Source: an uncultured Candidatus Saccharibacteria bacterium (GTDB lineage Bacteria > Patescibacteriota > Minisyncoccia > Phycocordibacterales > UBA1006). Taken from it: a DNA stretch of 64,000 bases. The notes under the pieces are model-generated. The model was not told where the DNA came from, did not search any database, and saw nothing but the letters and a program-made list of their open reading frames with translations. The stretch covers positions 875-64,874 of the forward strand of contig CAYQCC010000005.1 in assembly GCA_964415895.1 (NCBI GenBank), written 5' to 3'. Both the position numbers and the translations under genes were made by a program. Below, one piece after another: positions 3,497-58,525 of this stretch; within the stretch, counting starts at the first letter, position 1, and the number at the start of each line of letters is the position of its first letter.

Positions 3497-3679
3497 ATAA
3501 AATGTATATGATACAGATGTATCAAAGTCTATCCAATAATAATCGAGCCCATTACAGACAAGATAATGCATGAGTCATTTCGACCTGTGGCGGGATATTT
3601 CAGTACAATGTTACCATTGCACACCCAACCGTCTCTGGTGCATACCGGATCACAATAGCATAATAATTCAAAATTGCAA

Positions 3680-3710
3680 GACCGCACACCCAGAGTCTGG
3701 GTGTGCGGTC
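3680..3710. repeat. Palindrome GACCGCACACCCAGA-GTC-TGGGTGTGCGGTC. Family B, copy 2; terminator-like
   Basis: Seen directly. Same arms as 1710-1771. Lies 3' of gene 3722-4153 and about 185 nt upstream of rplJ. Confidence 0.7.
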
Positions 3711-3721
3711 AAGAGCGCTCT

Positions 3722-4153
3722 TTAGTCAGACTTCCAAGGAGACATGCTCATCAACATATCCTTTATTCCATTTAATACGATCATGATAAATTCAAACGTT
3801 CCCACTACCAAATCTTTCAATATATTATAAAGAACCGTCAGAAATTCATTAATAATTGGAATAACCCATCCTTTTCCAAAAAAGAGGTCATAGGATGCAA
3901 TAAATATAAAGAATAACACCCAAAAGGTTGCTTCAGATCGGTACAGTGAAAAACTGAACAGAAAAATCAACGTAATAATGACTACGACGAGTAATTTCAA
4001 TCCATTAAACGGTCCAAATTCCAAGAGTTTTACGATTCGATCTTTTTTATTATCGTCGGATTTATCTTTGAAATACTTGCGTAGCCACCCAATTCCCTTG
4101 AATATCTCGGATTTTATAAATTCCAAGTCACCTTTTAATGTTGGACGTGCCAT
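3722..4153 (-). CDS. Hypothetical membrane protein
   Basis: 143 aa with two to three predicted TM helices. Confidence 0.45.
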   Translation of the reverse strand: MARPTLKGDLEFIKSEIFKGIGWLRKYFKDKSDDNKKDRIVKLLEFGPFNGLKLLVVVIITLIFLFSFSLYRSEATFWVLFFIFIASYDLFFGKGWVIPIINEFLTVLYNILKDLVVGTFEFIMIVLNGIKDMLMSMSPWKSD

Positions 4154-11135: not shown

Positions 11136-11252
11136 GGTAAATCTCGCCAAAAGCGGCGTGTTGAGATCGAGGACCGAACCCGCAGCACCGCAGGTGCGTG
11201 AGGGCGCTTGCGTTCCGCAGATCGAAAACAGCCGCTTTTGGCGAGATTTACG
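11136..11252. repeat. GC-rich structured element: 22-bp inverted repeat (GGTAAATCTCGCCAAAAGCGGC ... GCCGCTTTTGGCGAGATTTACG) enclosing the family-C core GAGATCGAGGACCGAACCCGCAGCACCGCAGGTGCGTGAGGG
   Basis: Seen directly. High-GC island between the M50 gene start (11103) and rpmB (11336). Confidence 0.5.
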
Positions 11253-18989: not shown

Positions 18990-20795
18990 TTAACTGGCTA
19001 AAGATACAAACTTACTACCTTCTTGTATCAAACCTACCAATGAAAATGGCTCGGAATCACTTACCTCTCTTTTGACTATCTTTCCATTTTCGATACAAAT
19101 GATTCTTTGAAAGAAAGATTCGTAATGTTCGTCATGAAGACAGACAACAACCGTTTTACCTGGAAACAATGTCCCGGCTGTTATTTTGCCGTAGAAATCT
19201 TTTTTTGTTTCTGGGTCAATATTGCCCATAGGTTCGTCTAGTATAACTATTTCAATACTTGGATTGCTTGCCTTGAAATAAAGAGACGCTAAAGATATTC
19301 TTTTGTTTTGACCTGTAGATAGTTGAATACCACCTTTCCACTGCTGACCAATATACGTATCTAACTGGCTTGGTAAATCCTTTACGAATCCGTCCATGCC
19401 AACCGCATGTAATGCTTTCCAGATTAAATCATCATTATCTGTAGTAAGTGAGGCAGATATGATTTCCCTAATGGTTGTATCAGGTAAACCATTGTAAACA
19501 CTTTCAATAAGCATGTAATTCAACAGCGAAGATCTTTTAATATCTGATGTCTTTGTTCCGCCAAGAGTCACGTTTCCTAATTCAGGAAAGTAAATTCCAG
19601 CTATCAGATTTATCATGGTTGTTTTTCCGCCACCATTGTTTCCAATCAATCCGATGATTTCGCCTTGCGAAATCATCGTTGAAAGATTTTGAACAGCAGA
19701 CTTGTGCTTGTTTGGGTACGTAAATGTTACATCATCAAACACAATTGGTAGTAATGTGTTTACAGTTTTTGAACCTTCTATGTAAACAGGTTTTAATTCG
19801 TTAAAGGGTACAAAATATTTCTCATATTCCTTTAACGAATTAATGAAGTTCGCAATAGAAAAGCCCAAATTGCTAATTGAAGCCTTAAAAGTAAATAATG
19901 CTCCAAAAGCAAGAGGCCATGTAATAATCGTTATCTTTCCATGCATTGCTGATACACACATAAATCCCAAAGCAACGGCAGTACAAATAACACTAATTAC
20001 ACAATACGTTAATCTTCTTGCGGTTTGAATTCTTTGCATTTTCAAGAGATCATCTACAATTTTACCTCTTGCGTCATAGAAGCGACCTTTAAAGTACTCA
20101 CGAGTTCCATGAAAAATAGTCTGAAGAGCTGATTTATTATTTTGTAATAAATCATTATATTCTTCAAACATTGTTCGATCATCATGACCTTCTTCCCATA
20201 TACTCAACACTTTGCGATGTATTTGTATATTTGAAATAATGCTATATATTCCAGGAATTAGTACAAAGATAATCACCCAAGGTGAAAGTAGCGCAATAAG
20301 AGCGCCTGAAATCAACAGGGCGATCGTTCTTTGAAGAAGATTAAATGACTTATCATATAACCCTACCATCGAAGGCCAACCTTTTTGAAAAAACAATATT
20401 TTTGTTTTTGATACTTCGTTGTCAAAAAGCTGTGAAGGGTCAAGTTCTTCAATCTTTTTCTGAGTGAAGGTTTTGTGTTCTTGGAAATTATGCTCTGCTC
20501 TTAAGTTGTCATAATAATCGCCTATTTCCGAGATTAATTGCATACACGCAAGCCATACTGAAACGACAATGATAAAAATAATTCCCCATTTTACAGAATT
20601 ATCCTTACCAAGATTCGTTAACATAATAATACCTAAACTGGTAATACCACTTGAAATGGCGCTTTGTGATGCCGTCCAAAAACTTTCAAAAATATTAAAA
20701 GCAGTAAGTTTTGGAGCAATTCTTTTAGCTAATGCAAACGATTGAAGAACCGCCTGAATAACGAGCTGCTTGGTTAACGTGTTTTTCTTTTCCAT
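18990..20795 (-). CDS. ABC transporter, fused permease/ATP-binding protein (exporter type)
   Basis: N-terminal 6-TM domain; Walker A GNNGGGKTT, signature LSTGQNKRISLA, Walker B ILDEPMGNID. Confidence 0.85.
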   Translation of the reverse strand: MEKKNTLTKQLVIQAVLQSFALAKRIAPKLTAFNIFESFWTASQSAISSGITSLGIIMLTNLGKDNSVKWGIIFIIVVSVWLACMQLISEIGDYYDNLRAEHNFQEHKTFTQKKIEELDPSQLFDNEVSKTKILFFQKGWPSMVGLYDKSFNLLQRTIALLISGALIALLSPWVIIFVLIPGIYSIISNIQIHRKVLSIWEEGHDDRTMFEEYNDLLQNNKSALQTIFHGTREYFKGRFYDARGKIVDDLLKMQRIQTARRLTYCVISVICTAVALGFMCVSAMHGKITIITWPLAFGALFTFKASISNLGFSIANFINSLKEYEKYFVPFNELKPVYIEGSKTVNTLLPIVFDDVTFTYPNKHKSAVQNLSTMISQGEIIGLIGNNGGGKTTMINLIAGIYFPELGNVTLGGTKTSDIKRSSLLNYMLIESVYNGLPDTTIREIISASLTTDNDDLIWKALHAVGMDGFVKDLPSQLDTYIGQQWKGGIQLSTGQNKRISLASLYFKASNPSIEIVILDEPMGNIDPETKKDFYGKITAGTLFPGKTVVVCLHDEHYESFFQRIICIENGKIVKREVSDSEPFSLVGLIQEGSKFVSLAS

Positions 20796-20910
20796 ATGTT
20801 TTATTTTTTAGTTTTAAAAGATGATTTTCTTAATTTTTATCATTATATCATAAATGATATATATGTCAAAATAACAAAAAACCACACTTTCGAGTGGTTT
20901 TTGCAATCCA

Positions 20911-21762
20911 TTAATTTGGATTTCGTTTTGATTTTCGTCGTGTAACGATTGCATAGTTCGAATACTTCTTTGGAGTACGTGTTCGCACACCGTACGCTTG
21001 CTTTCCGTATCGAGTTTTTGGTCCTCGTCGTAGACCAATTCCCTGGCGCCCTTCTCCACCTCCGTGCGGGTGATCTACTGGGTTCATGGCAGAACCACGA
21101 ACTGTTGGTCGGATACCTTTCCATCGTGATCGTCCAGCTTTTCCAAGATTTACCAAATGGTAATCAGGGTTTGAAACTGATCCGATTGACGCATAACATT
21201 TATCAGATACTGTTCGAACTTCACCTGAAGGCATTTTAAGTTGAGTTCGCCCTTCGTTGTGCGCGTTTACTTGTGCAAAACTTCCGGCCGAACGCACCAT
21301 TTTAGCGCCATTATCAGGTTTAATTTCGATGTTGTAGATGAATGTTCCCACAGGAATGTTTACTAATGGCAAACGGTTTCCAGGTGTAAGTGGTGCATCT
21401 GCAGATACGATGAATGTTGATCCAGCAGTAACTCCTTGTGGAAGTACAATGTATCGTCGTTCACCATCCTTGTAACATACCAATCCAATGAAAGCTGATC
21501 GGTTTGGATCATATTCAACAGACTCGATCTTTGCAGGGATGTTGATCTTGTTCATTTTGAAATCGATTTCTCGATATGAACGTTTGTGTCCACCTCCTTT
21601 ATGAGGAGCTGTAATACGTCCTTGATTGTTTCGTCCAACATGTCGCTTTCGTCCTTTCGTCAAAGCCTTGTGAGGAGTTGAAGTCGTAAGCACGTCTCGG
21701 TATTTGATACCTGTCATGTTACGTCGTGACGGCGATGTTGGTTTATAAGTTTTAATTGCCAT
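20911..21762 (-). CDS. rplB: 50S ribosomal protein L2
   Basis: Start placed at MAIKTYKPTSPSRR. Contains the conserved GGGEGRQ...HPHGGGEG motif. Confidence 0.95.
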   Translation of the reverse strand: MAIKTYKPTSPSRRNMTGIKYRDVLTTSTPHKALTKGRKRHVGRNNQGRITAPHKGGGHKRSYREIDFKMNKINIPAKIESVEYDPNRSAFIGLVCYKDGERRYIVLPQGVTAGSTFIVSADAPLTPGNRLPLVNIPVGTFIYNIEIKPDNGAKMVRSAGSFAQVNAHNEGRTQLKMPSGEVRTVSDKCYASIGSVSNPDYHLVNLGKAGRSRWKGIRPTVRGSAMNPVDHPHGGGEGRQGIGLRRGPKTRYGKQAYGVRTRTPKKYSNYAIVTRRKSKRNPN

Positions 21763-21860
21763 AATGATTCTCGGTACCAATAAGGCTTTCTGGTACGGTT
21801 ATTTATATAAAATTCTTGCCTAAGGAAATAGTGAGTGAAGTAATAAAAGAAATTGTTTCT

Positions 21861-21903
21861 GAGATCGAGTCCGCGTTGCGGACGAAGCCGAGCACAGTGA
21901 GGA
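21861..21903. repeat. GC-rich repeat, family C copy: GAGATCGAG-TCCGCgttGCGGA-CGAAGCCGAG-CACAGTGAGG
   Basis: Seen directly. Shares flanks with 43873-43918, but the internal hairpin is a different palindrome. Sits in the unusually long rplW-rplB spacer. Confidence 0.5.
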
Positions 21904-21948
21904 AATTTTCGAAGGAATAATTTCTTTTATTACGAAACGCTCATGATA

Positions 21949-25449: not shown

Positions 25450-25637
25450 ATAGTTATATATTTCGGGAACAGGTACTCGAATCTACGGAGCACTTTAAGA
25501 AAAGATCCTAAATGCATGTTGCATAGATACGGCAATACGCGTTCCACTGGACGCCGGTCAAGGCCGCCCGATTAAATGAATAAACATATGGCATATTACG
25601 GAAAAATCGTTACTTGTCAATGGTTTTGCTGTATTTA

Positions 25638-25759
25638 TCTCCTCCTAATTTAGGAGGAGTGCCCAAAGGGCGAGGTGGTATTGTAAGCTTTATTGTGTGT
25701 ACAAAAATACCACCCCGTCTCGTCGTACCTCCTCGCCACCCCTCCTAAATTAGGAGGGG
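25638..25759. repeat. Triple-hairpin palindromic element: TCTCCTCCTAATTTAGGAGGAG ... GGTGGTATT-23-nt loop-AATACCACC ... CCCCTCCTAAATTAGGAGGGG
   Basis: Seen directly. The outer hairpins pair an SD-like AGGAGG with CCTCCT. Lies in the 477-bp tuf/hpf intergenic region. Related partial copies occur at 57545-57562 and 55046-55130. Confidence 0.5.
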
Positions 25760-25944
25760 ATTTCATACATTAAATTATGGTAAACGAGCCTTTAAATATA
25801 AGCTCTTATGAATGTCCTTTATGGCCCTATAATGTCCTTTAGAAAAATAGCCATGGTATACTGAATATGTACCGATTGAATCTCACCGCTGCCCGATTGT
25901 AATCATGCGTCCGAAAAGAGATACGGATGACATTTTCACCAATT

Positions 25945-26317: not shown

Positions 26318-27025
26318 ATGGAATCACCATCAAAAGCACCCTGGTATATTGGAATTATTATCATCATCGTAGCTATCGTTCTGGTAGTTATCGGACTCAA
26401 ATCTAAGACTGCAACACCGTCAGATGAAATGCCAATTATTAACACAGAAACTCAGACAGAAACATCTCAGAATACTGCGATTGACGCACCATTATCAAAC
26501 CAACCAACAACTTCAGTTCCCACTGATACTAAAAAAGTTATGAACACAGTTACACTAAAAACAAATATGGGAGAGATTACTATCACACTTGATCGAACAA
26601 GTGCTCCTAAGACTGTTGAAAACTTTACAAAGCTCGCAGGTGAAGGATTTTATGATGGTATTCGCTTCCACCGTGTTATCAAGGATTTCATGATCCAAAC
26701 TGGTGACCCTCAATCAAAAGATGAAAGTAAGAAATCATTGTGGGGTACAGGCGGACCAGGATATAAATTTGATGATGAATTAAGCGGAAAAGAAACCTAC
26801 CTACAAGGAACAGTTGCTATGGCAAATTCTGGACCTAATACGAATGGGTCACAATTCTTTATCGTAACAGCAAACCCTGGCGCTCCCCTTCCTCCAAGCT
26901 ACACAGTATTTGGAAAAGTAACAAAAGGGTTAGATGTTGCATTAAAGATCGAGAAAGTAAAAACAGAAACTGCAGATCGACCTATTGATGATGTTATTAT
27001 CGAAAAAGCTACTGTTTCAGAATAA
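26318..27025 (+). CDS. Peptidyl-prolyl cis-trans isomerase, cyclophilin type, membrane-anchored
   Basis: N-terminal TM helix and Thr-rich linker, then a cyclophilin domain (FHRVIKDFMIQTGDP...GTVAMAN...GSQFFI). Confidence 0.9.
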   Translation: MESPSKAPWYIGIIIIIVAIVLVVIGLKSKTATPSDEMPIINTETQTETSQNTAIDAPLSNQPTTSVPTDTKKVMNTVTLKTNMGEITITLDRTSAPKTVENFTKLAGEGFYDGIRFHRVIKDFMIQTGDPQSKDESKKSLWGTGGPGYKFDDELSGKETYLQGTVAMANSGPNTNGSQFFIVTANPGAPLPPSYTVFGKVTKGLDVALKIEKVKTETADRPIDDVIIEKATVSE

Positions 27026-27032
27026 ACAAAAA

Positions 27033-27051
27033 ACACCATATGGTGTTTTTT
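27033..27051. terminator. Bidirectional terminator (AACACC-atat-GGTGTT plus TTTTT)
   Basis: Hairpin with flanking A and T tracts, placed between convergent genes. Confidence 0.75.
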
Positions 27052-27053
27052 GT

Positions 27054-27698
27054 TTATTCTTTCCAGATTGCGAGCATATATGCTCCTGAATTATACCAGG
27101 CATGCAGCAACCGATCCCTGCTCACTATTGATACTGGCTCTTCAATCGGCTGGGAATTATTGAAGAAATAATGATCGCCTTCTTTTCCTGTAATGGTAAT
27201 GGCATGATTTCCCATTCCACCATTTGGACGAAGAAAAATTCCTCTATTCCGAACGCTTAGTATTACAGGCATACCCTTTTGTAAAAATTCATCAACACCT
27301 TCTAATGTTGGCAATGCCGTGGAATATTTTCCTCCTCTTTTTATAATATTAATATCTCCAAGCAGCTTTCTCCTGCGATATAGATTTTCCTCATTATTAG
27401 GAATGGACTCATAATTTTTTTGTATCCTTTCAAGATCTTTCTCGGTAACATTCTCTATTTCTGGACTTATCACTTGCAAGTCATGATATGCAAAGAATGT
27501 ATTATACCCACGGTCCAAGGCAACAATAGCCGCACCTTGATTATCATATCCTTGTTTGAGTTTATAAGGATTCATCAGTTCGATTACTTCCTTATATTCG
27601 ATGTTATCTCCTAAAAACCTTAACACCATTGTTAAGTTCGCTACTAGACACTCGTCGGATTTAGGAGTTTGTCGAATAATTGGAATATTTAATTTCAT
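27054..27698 (-). CDS. Peptidase C39-like (papain-fold) domain protein
   Basis: Start placed at MKLNIPI (the six-frame ORF runs into the tRNA). Q...DEC(L)VANL with catalytic Cys and a downstream GNHAIT His, consistent with a C39-like fold. Confidence 0.55.
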   Translation of the reverse strand: MKLNIPIIRQTPKSDECLVANLTMVLRFLGDNIEYKEVIELMNPYKLKQGYDNQGAAIVALDRGYNTFFAYHDLQVISPEIENVTEKDLERIQKNYESIPNNEENLYRRRKLLGDINIIKRGGKYSTALPTLEGVDEFLQKGMPVILSVRNRGIFLRPNGGMGNHAITITGKEGDHYFFNNSQPIEEPVSIVSRDRLLHAWYNSGAYMLAIWKE

Positions 27699-41140: not shown

Positions 41141-42241
41141 ATGCCTAAAAAAGTAACAAAACCTAAAAAAGAAAATGGTGGAGATTTGGACAGTACGTTG
41201 AAGATGATTCAGACGAAGTTTGGTGAAGGCGCTATTATGAAACTTGGCGAAACACCAAAAGTTGATATTGAAGTTGTTTCAACAGGATCAATCGGACTTG
41301 ATGCAGCTCTTGGAATCGGAGGACTTCCCCGCGGACGCATCATCGAGATTTTTGGACCAGAATCATCTGGTAAAACTACATTAACATTACATGTAATTGC
41401 TGAGGCTCAAAAAGCTGGAGGAATCTGTGCATTTATCGATGCAGAGCATGCGATGGATCCAGAATATTCAAAAAAATTGGGCGTGAAAATCGATGACCTG
41501 TTGATTTCACAACCTGATACTGGCGAACAAGCTCTTGAAATCACAGAAGCATTGGTTCGTTCAGGAAAAATCGACGTAGTTGTTATCGACTCTGTTGCAG
41601 CTCTTACTCCAAAAGATGAAATCGAAGGTGATATGGGTGCACACCATGTTGGGAAACAAGCTCGGTTAATGTCTCAGGCATTGCGTAAACTAACTGCAAT
41701 TGCTCACAAAAGTAAAACAGTGATTATCTTTATTAACCAAATCCGAATGCAGATTGGTGTTATGTTTGGAAACCCTGAAACCACACCAGGTGGAAAGGCG
41801 TTGAAATTCTATTCATCAGTTCGTTTGGATATTCGCCGAACTGCACAGATTAAAAAAGGTGAAGAAGTTGTTGGTGCTCGAACAAAAGTTAAAGTTGTAA
41901 AAAACAAAGTTGCCGCTCCGTTCAAGGTAACTGAATTTGATATCATCTATAACGAAGGTATTTCAATGGAAGGCGAAATGCTTGCCCTTGGCGAGAAATT
42001 CGGAATCGTTGGAAAATCTGGTGCGAGTTTCAGTTATATTTCAAAGGACAAGGATGGAAAGGAAGAAAAACTTCCATTAGGACGAGGATATGACGCAACA
42101 CGTCAGTTCTTGCGAACAAAGGAAGGTAAACCTATCCGCGATAAAATATTCAAGGAAATCACAAATCGTATTAAAAATGACGGATTGTCATTTACTGCTT
42201 CAACTTCTGAATCTGATGAAGGTTCAGAGCCAGAAGAATAA
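41141..42241 (+). CDS. recA: Recombinase RecA
   Basis: GPESSGKTT Walker A and the ...[23 protein letters not shown]... loop regions. Confidence 0.97.
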
Positions 42242-42252
42242 TTAAACAAAAA

Positions 42253-42277
42253 AACAAGACATTGTCTTGTTTTTTTG
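42253..42277. terminator. Bidirectional terminator (AACAAGAC-attg-TCTTGTT plus TTTTTT)
   Basis: Perfect hairpin with flanking A and T tracts, placed between convergent genes. Confidence 0.8.
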
Positions 42278-42278
42278 T

Positions 42279-43205
42279 TTAATAGCATGACATAGTCATA
42301 TCACACTTTGGATTTATAAGTCGAATCGTTTTTGTTAATCCTCGATAGGAAACCGTCATGGTTGTTTCGGTATCTTCTTTCAATCCTGTTACCAACAACG
42401 CTTGGTTATCTTTTCGACTTATTGTTGCAAGGCTTGGATTGGCGATGGTTGCGGTTAATTCTTTATCTGATGGAGAAATATATAATTTTTTACCGTCAGA
42501 ATAAACCGCTCTCACATATACACTTGCTGGGCTGGATTTTAATTGTGATAGATACATTACACCTGTTGTAAATCCTTCAGAAGGTTCAGGATGTTCTGCT
42601 TGATCTAACAAATCATAATCACCAACATCCAATCTGACAACTGCGTTTTTTGGGGAGATAAGCGTGATTGTTCCAGTAACGCTTTCTTTGTCTTCTGGCT
42701 TAAAGTTTGCCAAATTGTTCATTTGCAATATTCCCAACACGTCCCTGCCAACCTTATCTGGCAAGGTGAGAGTTTCTGTATGAATTCCTAATGACGTATT
42801 CTTATCAATATTCAAGGAACCCTTTTCCAGGGTAAATCCTGGAAGAAAAAGTACGCCAAGCTCTACTGGTTTCAATATCTCGTACCGCAGCGTAATCTTT
42901 GAACCTGCTTCAAATTGATCTCCCGATTTCGGACTAATAATTCGTATTCTGCTGGTTTCAACGAACGAGCCGTTTGGGATCTCTTTTGGCGGGACATAGC
43001 TTGCGGCAAATCGTTTTTCCATTTCTTCTGGAGATTCCTTGACTGAAGTATTGTTAGCACTTTCGCTATCCTTTTGAATTTCCTGAGGTTGTTGTTCGGC
43101 AGAATTATCGGTAGCTGGATTTGTTCTTGATTTACTTTCTTGATATAAGAAATATCCACCAATCCCTATTCCAATAACAAATATCACAACGATTATTTTT
43201 TTCAT
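42279..43205 (-). CDS. Membrane-anchored hypothetical protein with a C-terminal Ig-like domain
   Basis: 308 aa with one N-terminal TM helix. Confidence 0.5.
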   Translation of the reverse strand: MKKIIVVIFVIGIGIGGYFLYQESKSRTNPATDNSAEQQPQEIQKDSESANNTSVKESPEEMEKRFAASYVPPKEIPNGSFVETSRIRIISPKSGDQFEAGSKITLRYEILKPVELGVLFLPGFTLEKGSLNIDKNTSLGIHTETLTLPDKVGRDVLGILQMNNLANFKPEDKESVTGTITLISPKNAVVRLDVGDYDLLDQAEHPEPSEGFTTGVMYLSQLKSSPASVYVRAVYSDGKKLYISPSDKELTATIANPSLATISRKDNQALLVTGLKEDTETTMTVSYRGLTKTIRLINPKCDMTMSCY

Positions 43206-43828: not shown

Positions 43829-43872
43829 GATATAAGTAGTACGTTTTGAGTAAATAATGCAAAGGCGGCGCT

Positions 43873-43918
43873 GAAATCGAGCCGGCATGCCGGCGAAGCC
43901 GAGGACGAAGTCCGAGGG
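43873..43918. repeat. GC-rich repeat, family C copy: GAAATCGAG-CCGGCatGCCGG-CGAAGCCGAG-GACGAAGTCCGAGGG
   Basis: Seen directly. Lies 45 nt upstream of the efp start. Confidence 0.5.
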
Positions 43919-44069
43919 AATTATTGAAGCAACGGCTTTGTATTATTTACGGAATAGCAACGTTATTAAATGAATAATACCCTAATCCTACCCATTTTTC
44001 AGTTTTTATCAAGCAGTAAAATTAAAGAGCCATGCAATATGCATGGCTCAGTTTTATTTGTGATTGTAA

Positions 44070-48549: not shown

Positions 48550-49101
48550 ATGTCACTTCAAACATTTAACATATTAATTGGAATTGGAGTTATTGCAATT
48601 TCACTTATCACAGTAACTCTTGTCATCTTTAGAGCTGTTATGGGAAAAGATAGTTCGATCATGCAATCAGTGCACAACTATGCATTACCAATTGGTTTTA
48701 TATTGGGACTTGCTGCGATTGTTGGCTCACTTACCTATTCAAACATCTATATGCTTCCACCGTGCTTATTCTGCTGGTGGCAACGAATATTCCTGTATCC
48801 GCAATTTGTATTATTTGCAATTGCTTGGTATCGCAACCGTAAAGGAACATTTGATGGCAAGGAAATCTTTTACTTCACAACACCAATGGCGATCATTGGA
48901 TCAGTTATATCGCTATATCACGTATTCCTGCAACAAGGCGTCATTGCAAACACAGGTGCGTGTTTGCAAAACGGAGTATCATGTACGACTATTGATATCA
49001 GTGTCTTTGGATTTCTAACAATCCCTATTATGGCTCTTGTCTTAGGTATTGCACTCGCACTTCTTGGAGTATTTGTTATCCGAACAAAGAAAAATCAATA
49101 A
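48550..49101 (+). CDS. Disulfide bond formation protein B (DsbB/BdbC family)
   Basis: 4-TM protein with CLFCWWQR and a second periplasmic Cys pair. Confidence 0.75.
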   Translation: MSLQTFNILIGIGVIAISLITVTLVIFRAVMGKDSSIMQSVHNYALPIGFILGLAAIVGSLTYSNIYMLPPCLFCWWQRIFLYPQFVLFAIAWYRNRKGTFDGKEIFYFTTPMAIIGSVISLYHVFLQQGVIANTGACLQNGVSCTTIDISVFGFLTIPIMALVLGIALALLGVFVIRTKKNQ

Positions 49102-49141
49102 TGTCAAAAAACTACCTTATATAAGGTAGTTTTTTGACATT
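49100..49141 (+). terminator. Rho-independent terminator within a 42-nt palindrome (TGTCAAAAAACTACCTTATATAAGGTAGTTTTTTGACA)
   Basis: Seen directly after the DsbB stop. Confidence 0.75.
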
Positions 49142-49244
49142 ATTTTAAATAAAAGGCGTTTTAAAACTTACTATACACAACTATTACGCTAGGGTATAAT
49201 TAAAGTACAGAGATTTTCTCTACTTATTAGTAATAATTATTCAT

Positions 49245-57519: not shown

Positions 57520-57594
57520 ATTAATAAAAGTATATCATATGATGTTTAAATCCCCTCCTAGTTTAGGAACTGAACGCTTGATTTTGAGGTTTGT

Positions 57595-57972
57595 ACTGTC
57601 ATTCCCGCGAAGGCGGGAATCCATTAGGGCTCTACGAAAACGAAAGATCTTTCCATTCGGGATTTCTTTCTTGAATTAATCTAATTTTCCATAATCGATT
57701 CCATTTCTTTAATTTCTTCTCATATTTAATAGCAGCTTCTATACTATTCGTCATTTCATACTAAACCAATAAGTGTAATCCGTATTTATATGTAAATCCT
57801 TTATTGATTCCTTGTTTGTGTTCCACAACTCTTCGTTCAAGATTATTAGTTACCCCGACATAAAGTGTTCCATATTGTTCATTAGTCATAATATAAACAA
57901 AATACATGACATTAATTATATCAGAGATTATTTTACTGATCATGGATTCCCGCCTTCGCGGGAATGACAACA
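57595..57972 (-). mobile_element. Compact GIY-YIG element, copy 2, bounded by a perfect 28-nt inverted repeat (TGTCATTCCCGCGAAGGCGGGAATCCAT)
   Basis: Same terminal architecture as 4513-4878: TGTCAT, a 5-bp GC hairpin, then ATCCA. The hairpin sequence differs from copy 1 but remains self-complementary. Confidence 0.5.
57650..57952 (-). pseudogene. GIY-YIG nuclease gene disrupted by a frameshift
   Basis: N-terminus MISKIISDIINVMYFVYIMTNEQYGTLYVGVTNNLERRVVEHK ends prematurely. The conserved C-terminal ...KKLKKWNRLWKIRLIQERNPEW is readable in another frame of 57650-57760. Confidence 0.6.
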
Positions 57973-58525
57973 GAATTGAAAAACCTTTCCCGAAGGAAAG
58001 GTTTTTCAATTCTGTGCTTAATTGGTTGCAAGGCAAGCCTCATAAGCATTCAAACACAGAAATCTCAAAGACATCTTTTCTGCCCACGAGGGAGCTGAAA
58101 TTGAAGAAAGGAGAAAGGAGAAATCCAGAAGTCGTCCGTTCAAGCAGACGCACCAGACATTCCTACCCGCAAACCCCAGGAAGACCGCGAGATCCCGATC
58201 CCTTTGAGATTTCTATGTTCAAAACTATTATGTAGTTTTATGATTGAAGCATATCATACTAATTATAATATGTCAAGTGCTTCACACTTATCTAACTTTT
58301 TAATTACATTGGTTTGCAATTAAAAATCCAGCAAGACTTAGACTATAACGCGGTTATGAAAATTGCGCAAGCACAAAATATGTGGTTTTTCACCAAGTTA
58401 TCCACAGGCTTTTTCCACATGCTAAATGAGCAATATACCTTTATTTATAAGGATATCTTCCTTATTTTCATGTTTTAAATCTGTATTACTGAAAAAAGAG
58501 ACTTGTATGATATAATGGATTTTAT

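Follow-up and report, generated by a model that had tools for sequence, protein, structure and literature searches.

Hairpin elements upstream of rplB, efp and an M50 protease gene: a probable family of structure-defined palindromic insertions in a narrow CPR/Patescibacteria clade

The 64,000-nt stretch of DNA analysed here (the window) contains three GC-rich islands, at 11163-11204, 21861-21903 and 43873-43918, all on the + strand, which raise the question of whether they are regulatory RNAs, protein-binding sites or mobile DNA. A first-pass annotation had offered these three options, the first as a cis-regulatory RNA motif in 5' UTRs, the last as a MITE-like insertion. The islands are present where they had been placed, and their cores are separated by 99, 44 and 60 nt from the minus-strand starts of rplB, efp and the M50 gene, respectively. 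The motif GARATCGAG, which they share, occurs eight times in the window against 1.0 expected, a count reached in 0 of 100 shuffles. The rplW-rplB spacer does measure 186 nt, and the low-GC background, claimed to be ~37%, is 38% over the window. Among the three options, the MITE-like insertion is the best fit. We propose, with a probability of roughly 60%, that the islands belong to a family of small non-coding, structure-defined, non-autonomous palindromic insertion elements in a narrow Paceibacteria-like clade of the CPR/Patescibacteria.

Anatomy of the element and selection on one strand

The GC-rich islands are real and not due to chance, but each is only the apex of a far longer hairpin. 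The whole element is a hairpin of ~95-125 nt whose stem (P1, ~20-30 bp) is long, AT-rich and different in every copy. On top of the stem sits a GC-rich junction that is conserved and measures ~58 nt in type B and ~65-80 nt in type A. Where a single hairpin per core had been described, each core has a pair of conserved hairpins and, in addition, a 3' tail that is also conserved, GRAATTWTYGAA, and had been overlooked. The copies near rplB (copy B) and efp (copy C) have one architecture, type B, and the copy near the M50 gene (copy A) has a related but distinct one, type A. Their features are as follows.

11137..11251, + strand: copy A, whole element, type A, in the spacer separating rpmB from the divergent M50 protease gene
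11137-11168 and 11220-11251: copy A, arms (inverted repeats)
11137-11157 with 11231-11251, + strand: copy A, P1
11165-11168 with 11220-11223, + strand: copy A, GAUC paired with GAUC
Core of copy A, + strand: GGA/UCC helix; P3, CCC-GCAG-CACC gca GGUG-CGUGA-GGG; CG-CUUG-CG hairpin
21831..21944, + strand: copy B, whole element, type B, in the rplW-rplB spacer (RNA fold, z -7.4)
21831-21837 with 21938-21944, + strand: copy B, outer 7-bp helix
21840-21860 and 21913-21933: copy B, arms (inverted repeats)
21840..21860, + strand: copy B, 5' arm of P1, GTAATAAAAGAAATTGTTTCT, pairing with 21913-21933 with two G-U pairs (inverted repeat, fold, covariation)
21913..21933, + strand: copy B, 3' arm of P1, AGGAATAATTTCTTTTATTAC (fold, inverted repeat)
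21861..21912, + strand: copy B, core (alignment, pair counts, model R1)
21861-21864, + strand: copy B, GAGA bulge
21865-21868 with 21909-21912, + strand: copy B, UCGA paired with UCGA
21869-21883, + strand: copy B, P2
21884-21887, + strand: copy B, GAAG
21888-21902, + strand: copy B, P3 (CC-GA-GC aca GU-GA-GG)
21903-21908, + strand: copy B, AAAUUU
43850..43950, + strand: copy C, whole element, type B, upstream of efp, whose start codon is 20 nt away
43850-43877 and 43923-43950: copy C, arms (inverted repeats)
43850-43872 with 43928-43950, + strand: copy C, P1
43873-43876, + strand: copy C, GAAA
43877-43880 with 43924-43927, + strand: copy C, UCGA paired with UUGA
43882-43893, + strand: copy C, P2
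43894-43898, + strand: copy C, CGAAG
43899-43917, + strand: copy C, P3

In type B the order is P1, a GARA bulge, a UCGA/UYGA helix of 4 bp, a G, P2, CGAAG, P3, GRAAUUWU and the return to P1. The stem is ~21 bp, often extended to ~30 bp, with a conserved closing U-A pair, and P3 consists of CC, a tandem G.A/A.G and a variable tip. Type A has GAUCGAG, CGAA and CC...GAGG in common with type B; a long-range GGA/UCC helix takes the place of P2 and an extra CG-CUUG-CG hairpin is present. The type-B covariance model (R1) gives 82.8 bits on copy B and only 18.9 bits (E=0.11) on copy A. All three copies fold far better than shuffled sequences, with z-scores of -7.7, -7.4 and -5.0 for A, B and C. Exact matches to CGAAGCCGAG in the window are confined to copies B (at 21883) and C (at 43894). 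The outer ends GTAA(A)T...A(T)TTAC are common to the three window copies only and absent from the copies elsewhere.

The element is under structural selection. It had been suggested that the sequence of these hairpins varies while pairing is kept. Covariation supports this within each type, but the hairpins that had been compared are not homologous across copies: TCCGC/GCGGA in copy B and CCGGC/GCCGG in copy C form helix P2, whereas GCACC/GGTGC in copy A is the tip of P3 and not a counterpart of P2. Covariation is strong in the type-B alignment of eight sequences, where 92% of cells are paired and 17 of 26 pairs have changed on both sides; none of 500 shuffles did as well, and sliding the partners lowered pairing to 34-45%. 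The type-A alignment, with three sequences, is 98% paired, and 6 of its 17 pairs have changed on both sides.

Pairing is maintained on one strand only. The paired columns hold 10 G-U cells versus one A-C cell, and the minimum-energy folds contain 31 G-U pairs versus one C-A mismatch, an excess which implies that one strand is selected. The element strand folds better than its complement in every copy, by 4.5-16 kcal/mol with RNA parameters (in copy B, -43.9 kcal/mol on the + strand and -28.4 on the - strand) and by about 2-8 kcal/mol with DNA parameters in all four copies tested. A palindrome acting at the level of the duplex would be free of this asymmetry. A deamination bias, as expected for the exposed gene-sense strand, would, we infer, push the opposite way. 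Relative to rplB, efp, uvrB, frr/rseP and, in locus L049, YqeY/holin, the selected strand runs antisense; only in L081 is it sense. It is antisense in 6 of 7 scorable loci, a suggestive bias that is not statistically significant.

Distribution, insertion sites and the puzzle of the stems

After filtering, type-B copies were found only in metagenome-assembled genomes of Candidatus Paceibacteria/Paceibacterota and in metagenome contigs of similar composition. Filtering was needed because simple sequence patterns are swamped by the Glu-rich coding sequence of GC-rich genomes, which accounted for 52 of 55 matches as false positives in a genome scan and for 2 of 7 in a metagenome scan. Three DNA patterns run against viral contigs gave either Glu-rich phage coding sequence (GAG ATC GAG ... 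GAA GCC GAG) or nothing. Type-A relatives were obtained through homologues of ribosomal protein L23; the L23 of the window has solely metagenomic close relatives, and a distant match is labelled Paceibacterota. The copies outside the window are listed below.

L048/L095: type B, inside uvrB
L081/L091 and L049: type B, YqeY-holin spacer
L097: type B, frr-rseP spacer
L092/L096: type B, orthologue of copy C
L021, 3871-3975: type A, rplW-rplB spacer
L032, 11541-11643: type A, rpmB-M50 spacer

Copies are sparse and sporadic. There are three in the 64-kb window, and a model scan of ~400 kb of relatives matched only the loci that had been retrieved on account of the element, duplicates from close strains and the uvrB copies of L100-L102. 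No copy was seen in ~96 kb from relatives empty at the YqeY-holin site. The independent loci seen number only ~10, all in one narrow clade. The L092/L096 orthologues differ from copy C in P1 and P2 mainly by one-sided changes (G-G to U-G, C-A to U-A, C-G to U-G), and their P2 loop is longer.

At one and the same site, some close relatives have the whole hairpin and others lack it. A type-B copy occupies the rplW-rplB spacer of the window and a type-A copy that of L021; the spacer is 71 nt long with no insert in L029 (L23 85% identical), and it is occupied by an unrelated two-hairpin element in L027/L028 (93%) and L022/L023, and by AT-rich filler in L032 and L017. The rpmB-M50 spacer is occupied in the window and L032 and empty in L021, L022 and L023. 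The YqeY-holin spacer is 136-137 nt, nearly all of it hairpin, in L081 and L049, and measures 14 and 8 nt in relatives without the element whose YqeY is 88% and 82% identical. The element is small, non-coding, dispersed and polymorphic for presence at orthologous sites, which could make it a marker of strain-level variation in uncultivated lineages. The uniform orientation and position relative to genes that had been reported hold within the window, but the wider set of copies includes other spacers, either orientation and the interior of uvrB.

The uvrB case reveals what happens to a copy after insertion. In L048 the entire hairpin lies within uvrB, antisense, between the segments encoding VRPVVAT and YPGQIQDF; arms and core together add ~40 aa (120 nt) in frame and without a stop codon. 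At least nine diverged UvrB sequences (83-97% identity), from several species, have the element-derived insertion, and UvrB proteins of 86-91% identity lack it. The empty allele in L098, whose UvrB is 91% identical, has neither arms nor core. The orthologous uvrB copies score 63, 55 and 34 bits with the type-B model; they retain the inner arms, and the otherwise invariant junction is altered, e.g., to GAGATCAAG or CGAAACC. A copy thus drifts after insertion, and old copies lose conserved junction bases. The element is tolerated both inside a protein of an essential pathway and inside a ribosomal-protein operon. It is also a warning for annotation, where it can inflate spacers, extend ORFs spuriously and appear as “insertions” in conserved proteins. 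Of 12 copies, 10 have one or more frames without a stop on the reverse strand and 5 on the element strand, counts too weak to be used as evidence of an adaptation of the element to translation.

The UvrB loop itself, from VRPV(V/T)A to (Y/F)PGQIQDF, is an insertion hot spot in this clade (UvrB homologues P0055-P0174). About 35 of 120 UvrB relatives have in-frame inserts of 10-60 aa, among which many unrelated sequences, often encoded by palindromes, are represented. Inserts in this loop include the following.

L048, 1785-1905: insert in the UvrB loop
L100, 11297-11470: insert in the UvrB loop
L102, 11306-11470: insert in the UvrB loop

The stems are a puzzling part of the element. The P1 arms are unrelated between copies, so that terminal inverted repeats common to the family were not found. 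L081 and L097 carry an identical 58-nt core on unrelated arms at different loci, and between L081 and L049 the core has opposite orientations in the same YqeY-holin spacer, with the genes collinear. No clear target-site duplication was seen in comparisons of filled and empty sites (uvrB in L048/L098; YqeY-holin in L081/L049 versus L103/L111; rplW-rplB in the window/L029), the empty alleles coming from diverged species. When seven 5' arms were compared by blastn-short with 0.5 Mb of DNA from relatives, the copies themselves and chance 13-mers were the only matches. We also considered whether the core targets pre-existing hairpins, and found no support for this as a general rule: the empty YqeY-holin and uvrB sites contain no hairpin, and the rplW-rplB fillers of L032 and L017 fold no better than shuffles. 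Although the stems belong to the insertion, the core is not passed on together with them, as L081 and L097 illustrate. Since no source of the arms was found in the 0.5 Mb either, a simple cut-or-copy-and-paste model is insufficient. Either the core moves or is converted independently of the stem, or each insertion is given a newly made stem. A nested palindrome elsewhere in the window (see below) and the flipped core point to activity at hairpin apices. The exchange of the stem with retention of the tip is a tractable puzzle.

Origin of the element and comparison with known repeats

How could such an element spread and persist? We suggest that it moves as DNA and that an enzyme encoded elsewhere probably recognises a folded single DNA strand, i.e., the three-way junction on its stem. 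Folded strands are recognised in this way at attC sites, in REP/REPIN systems and at IS200/IS605 ends. An inserted copy would have no locus-specific job and would then decay. The excess of antisense copies may arise because the sense orientation would place the stabler fold in mRNAs. Any influence on rplB, efp or the M50 gene would be incidental, arising for instance from a long hairpin in the transcript or from outward-facing ATTTAC sequences resembling -35 hexamers. A Pfam search of 18 window ORFs and 7 locus ORFs gave no transposase, integrase or other mobilising candidate in the window or adjoining any copy. In an additional scan of ten window ORFs for such an enzyme, the sole match was a GIY-YIG ORF, which is part of a different hairpin element.

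The regulatory-leader reading, which makes the element a cis-acting RNA in the 5' UTRs of these three genes, has in its favour that the three window copies lie 44-99 nt upstream of minus-strand starts and that the sense mRNAs must include copies B and C, the former lying within an operon and the latter a mere 20 nt before efp. However, the selected strand is the antisense one, and the sense-strand fold is weaker and holds the A-C mismatches. Copy A precedes the -35/-10 match of the M50 gene and is not in the UTR: the best M50 promoter match is TTTACC-18-TATAAT (10/12), and its -35 hexamer is the outer end of the P1 of copy A. Relatives have the same genes without the element or with a different insertion at the site, and other copies are beside unrelated genes (YqeY/holin, frr/rseP) or interrupt uvrB, so that neither position nor sense orientation is conserved relative to one gene family. 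Hence, we find the leader reading scarcely credible.

A second rival is a structured-RNA gene on the element (+) strand. It could encode a stable ncRNA that RNase III releases from the P1 stem, or a small ribozyme, and have spread because the RNA is useful or is a mobile intermediate. Invariant unpaired junction bases combined with freely varying helices (here P1, P2 and P3) are also a hallmark of functional RNA and count against the insertion reading. One strand is selected, with G-U pairs, the fold asymmetry is larger with RNA parameters (4.5-16 kcal/mol) than with DNA parameters (about 2-8), and a stem of 20-30 bp is a typical RNase III substrate. Against this, the element has no conserved promoter or terminator of its own, since its stems and flanks vary from copy to copy; in most scorable loci, a ribosomal-protein operon and uvrB among them, the folded strand runs antisense; and the orthologous copies lose junction bases. 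No match to Rfam was obtained even at E up to 10, and we consider an RNA gene improbable. A host DNA signal, acting as folded single-stranded DNA or a cruciform to which a replication, repair or recombination protein binds or on which it loads, and retained where useful, seems less probable again. It would fit a strand-specific conserved structure without evident transcription signals and a prevailing orientation with respect to genes and hence, probably, to replication, in a window where the + strand has a negative GC skew over most of its length. It is at odds with presence or absence at one site in close relatives, the flipped orientation in one spacer, the insertion within a conserved protein, the decay of old copies and the ~96 kb of relatives that held no copy. 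The skew was discarded as a replication signal, as effects of replication and of coding strand are inseparable in the window.

A more radical possibility concerns the unit that moves. The ~58-nt three-way junction could itself be mobile or catalytic, or the substrate of an unknown structure-specific enzyme, and could settle at the apices of palindromes or build a new ~20-30 bp stem. This would account for identical cores on unrelated stems, for the flipped core and for nested palindromes. We hold it to be unlikely, to about the same degree as the RNA gene, but if true it would amount to transposition or templated insertion without conserved ends, which is not described for bacterial repeats.

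For the palindromic-insertion reading that we favour, comparison with other systems is informative. Selfish DNA in the form of small palindromic repeats is familiar from Rickettsia, enterobacteria, pneumococci and mitochondria, and the CPR/Patescibacteria, with their tiny genomes, are usually regarded as poor in mobile DNA. To our knowledge, and in the literature that we searched, such repeats have not been described before for this group. The first-pass annotation had pointed to Rfam, and no curated family matches: at gathering thresholds, Rfam 15 finds in the window only the 23S rRNA and two tRNAs, and E-value scans (E up to 10) of copies B and A return spurious miRNA-hairpin matches well under gathering scores. 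The signatures of the hammerhead (CUGANGA/GAAA), twister, attC and group II domain V are, by eye, unlike the core. Judged by Rfam and the literature searched, the family is undescribed. Its defining trait is a fold rather than a set of terminal sequences: the branched apex is invariant, and each copy has a new stem.

By analogy, the element appears closest in behaviour to the Rickettsia palindromic elements (RPEs), and it also resembles mitochondrial GC clusters. Like RPEs, it is ~100-150 bp, palindromic and non-autonomous, resides in a reduced AT-rich genome, and is found both between genes and, in frame and free of stops, in conserved protein genes (here uvrB, one coding site). We know of no transposase associated with RPEs, nor with the element. 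Compared by description, RPE families have sequence conserved along the element and a conserved peptide, whereas here only the GC-rich apex is conserved, and the hosts are unrelated, Alphaproteobacteria in one case and CPR in the other. Insertions of RPEs within genes are in frame as well (PMC10969869). Mitochondrial GC clusters are GC-rich palindromes in AT-rich DNA, sporadic and of rapid turnover, which merge and nest and for which no dedicated enzyme is known (PMC4478555). They are simple hairpins of ~30-60 bp in organelles, whereas here a branched junction stands on a 20-30 bp AT-rich stem in bacteria; nesting is seen in both the clusters and the window DNA (1706-1777 versus 3676-3722).

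Other systems differ more. REP/REPIN elements, mobilised by RAYT, a Y1 HUH enzyme, and the palindromic MITEs of IS200/IS605 are processed as folded single-stranded DNA, in a strand-specific manner, by an enzyme acting in trans. In REPs the hairpin sequence and a 5' GTAG are conserved within a genome that has a RAYT gene, whereas P1, P2 and P3 of the element differ between copies B and C; the element has no GTAG motif, and Pfam gave no Y1/HUH gene among 18 window and 7 locus ORFs. As in the element, what defines integron attC sites, of about 60-140 nt, is how one strand folds and not its sequence. They have conserved boxes, RYYYAAC/GTTRRRY, at the base and a variable apex, the converse of the conserved apex and variable base seen here. 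We found no GTTRRRY at the bases of the element and no integrase or cassette array, and the neighbours are housekeeping genes. Classical MITEs (Correia, ERIC, BOX, RUP) are small, non-coding stem-loops in AT-rich intergenic regions that can create promoters or fusions (PMC10969869). They have terminal inverted repeats common to the family and target-site duplications, both derived from a parent IS; for the element, such repeats were not found, and no clear duplication was seen against the empty alleles of diverged species.

Other signals and hairpins in the window

Several observations concern the neighbourhood of the copies. The outer ends of P1 in copies A (11136-11141) and C (43849-43854) read ATTTAC outwards, giving the -35-like hexamers TTTACC and TTTACT facing the M50 gene and efp. 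Read from the sequence, copy A is also upstream of an rpmB promoter match, TTGCAT...TAGTAT. Part of a promoter may come from the element. The 60-70 nt adjoining the rplB start (21763-21825) are conserved in L017, L021, L022, L027, L029 and L032 whatever is inserted upstream, and read, on the gene strand, TTCCTTAGGCAAG ... GTACCAG-AAAGCCTTA-TTGGTAC; this stretch is a candidate rplB leader or processing structure. The S10 operon is interrupted after rplB (18990-21780 in the window; also in L017, L021 and L022), where a gene of 600-630 aa comes next. This gene encodes an ABC-ATPase in the window, and rpsS is ~9 kb off in L017.

The window also contains hairpins of other kinds. A 91-aa GIY-YIG ORF (57761-58036, minus strand) is accompanied by inverted GC hairpins, GTCATTCCCGCGAAGGCGGGAATCC (57598-57622) and GGATTCCCGCCTTCGCGGGAATGAC (57944-57968), and two-hairpin versions without the ORF, with the same GTCAT...ATGAC ends, occupy the rplW-rplB spacer of L027/L028 and L022/L023. 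This looks like a second element family with a candidate nuclease. The pair of GC-rich hairpins at 1706-1777 and 3676-3722 has the form GCAAG-NCCGCACACCCAGA ... TCTGGGTGTGCGGN-CAAG; the hairpin at 3676 has a 3-nt loop, and the one at 1706 has in its loop a perfect palindrome of 32 nt (AAAATACGGACCCCGA/TCGGGGTCCGTATTTT, read as one uninterrupted palindrome), i.e., a nested palindrome. Upstream of tuf, a long spacer holds the inverted repeat ATCTCCTCCTAATTTAGGAGGAG / CCCCTCCTAAATTAGGAGGGGAT, with 75 nt between its arms (25637-25761), and a similar sequence, ATCCCCTCCTAGTTTAGGAA (57550-57569), adjoins the GIY-YIG element; together they may be a third repeat family. At 58053-58219, upstream of ruvB, 23-nt inverted arms surround 121 nt of GC-rich sequence that has no Rfam match at the gathering threshold, and which may be an unannotated structured RNA or another insertion. 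Finally, many perfect intergenic palindromes of 16-24 bp have A-tract/T-tract arms and loops of 0-4 nt and are probably bidirectional terminators. Examples are given below.

27019-27060: A-tract/T-tract palindrome
42241-42283: A-tract/T-tract palindrome
49097-49144: A-tract/T-tract palindrome
57970-58015: A-tract/T-tract palindrome
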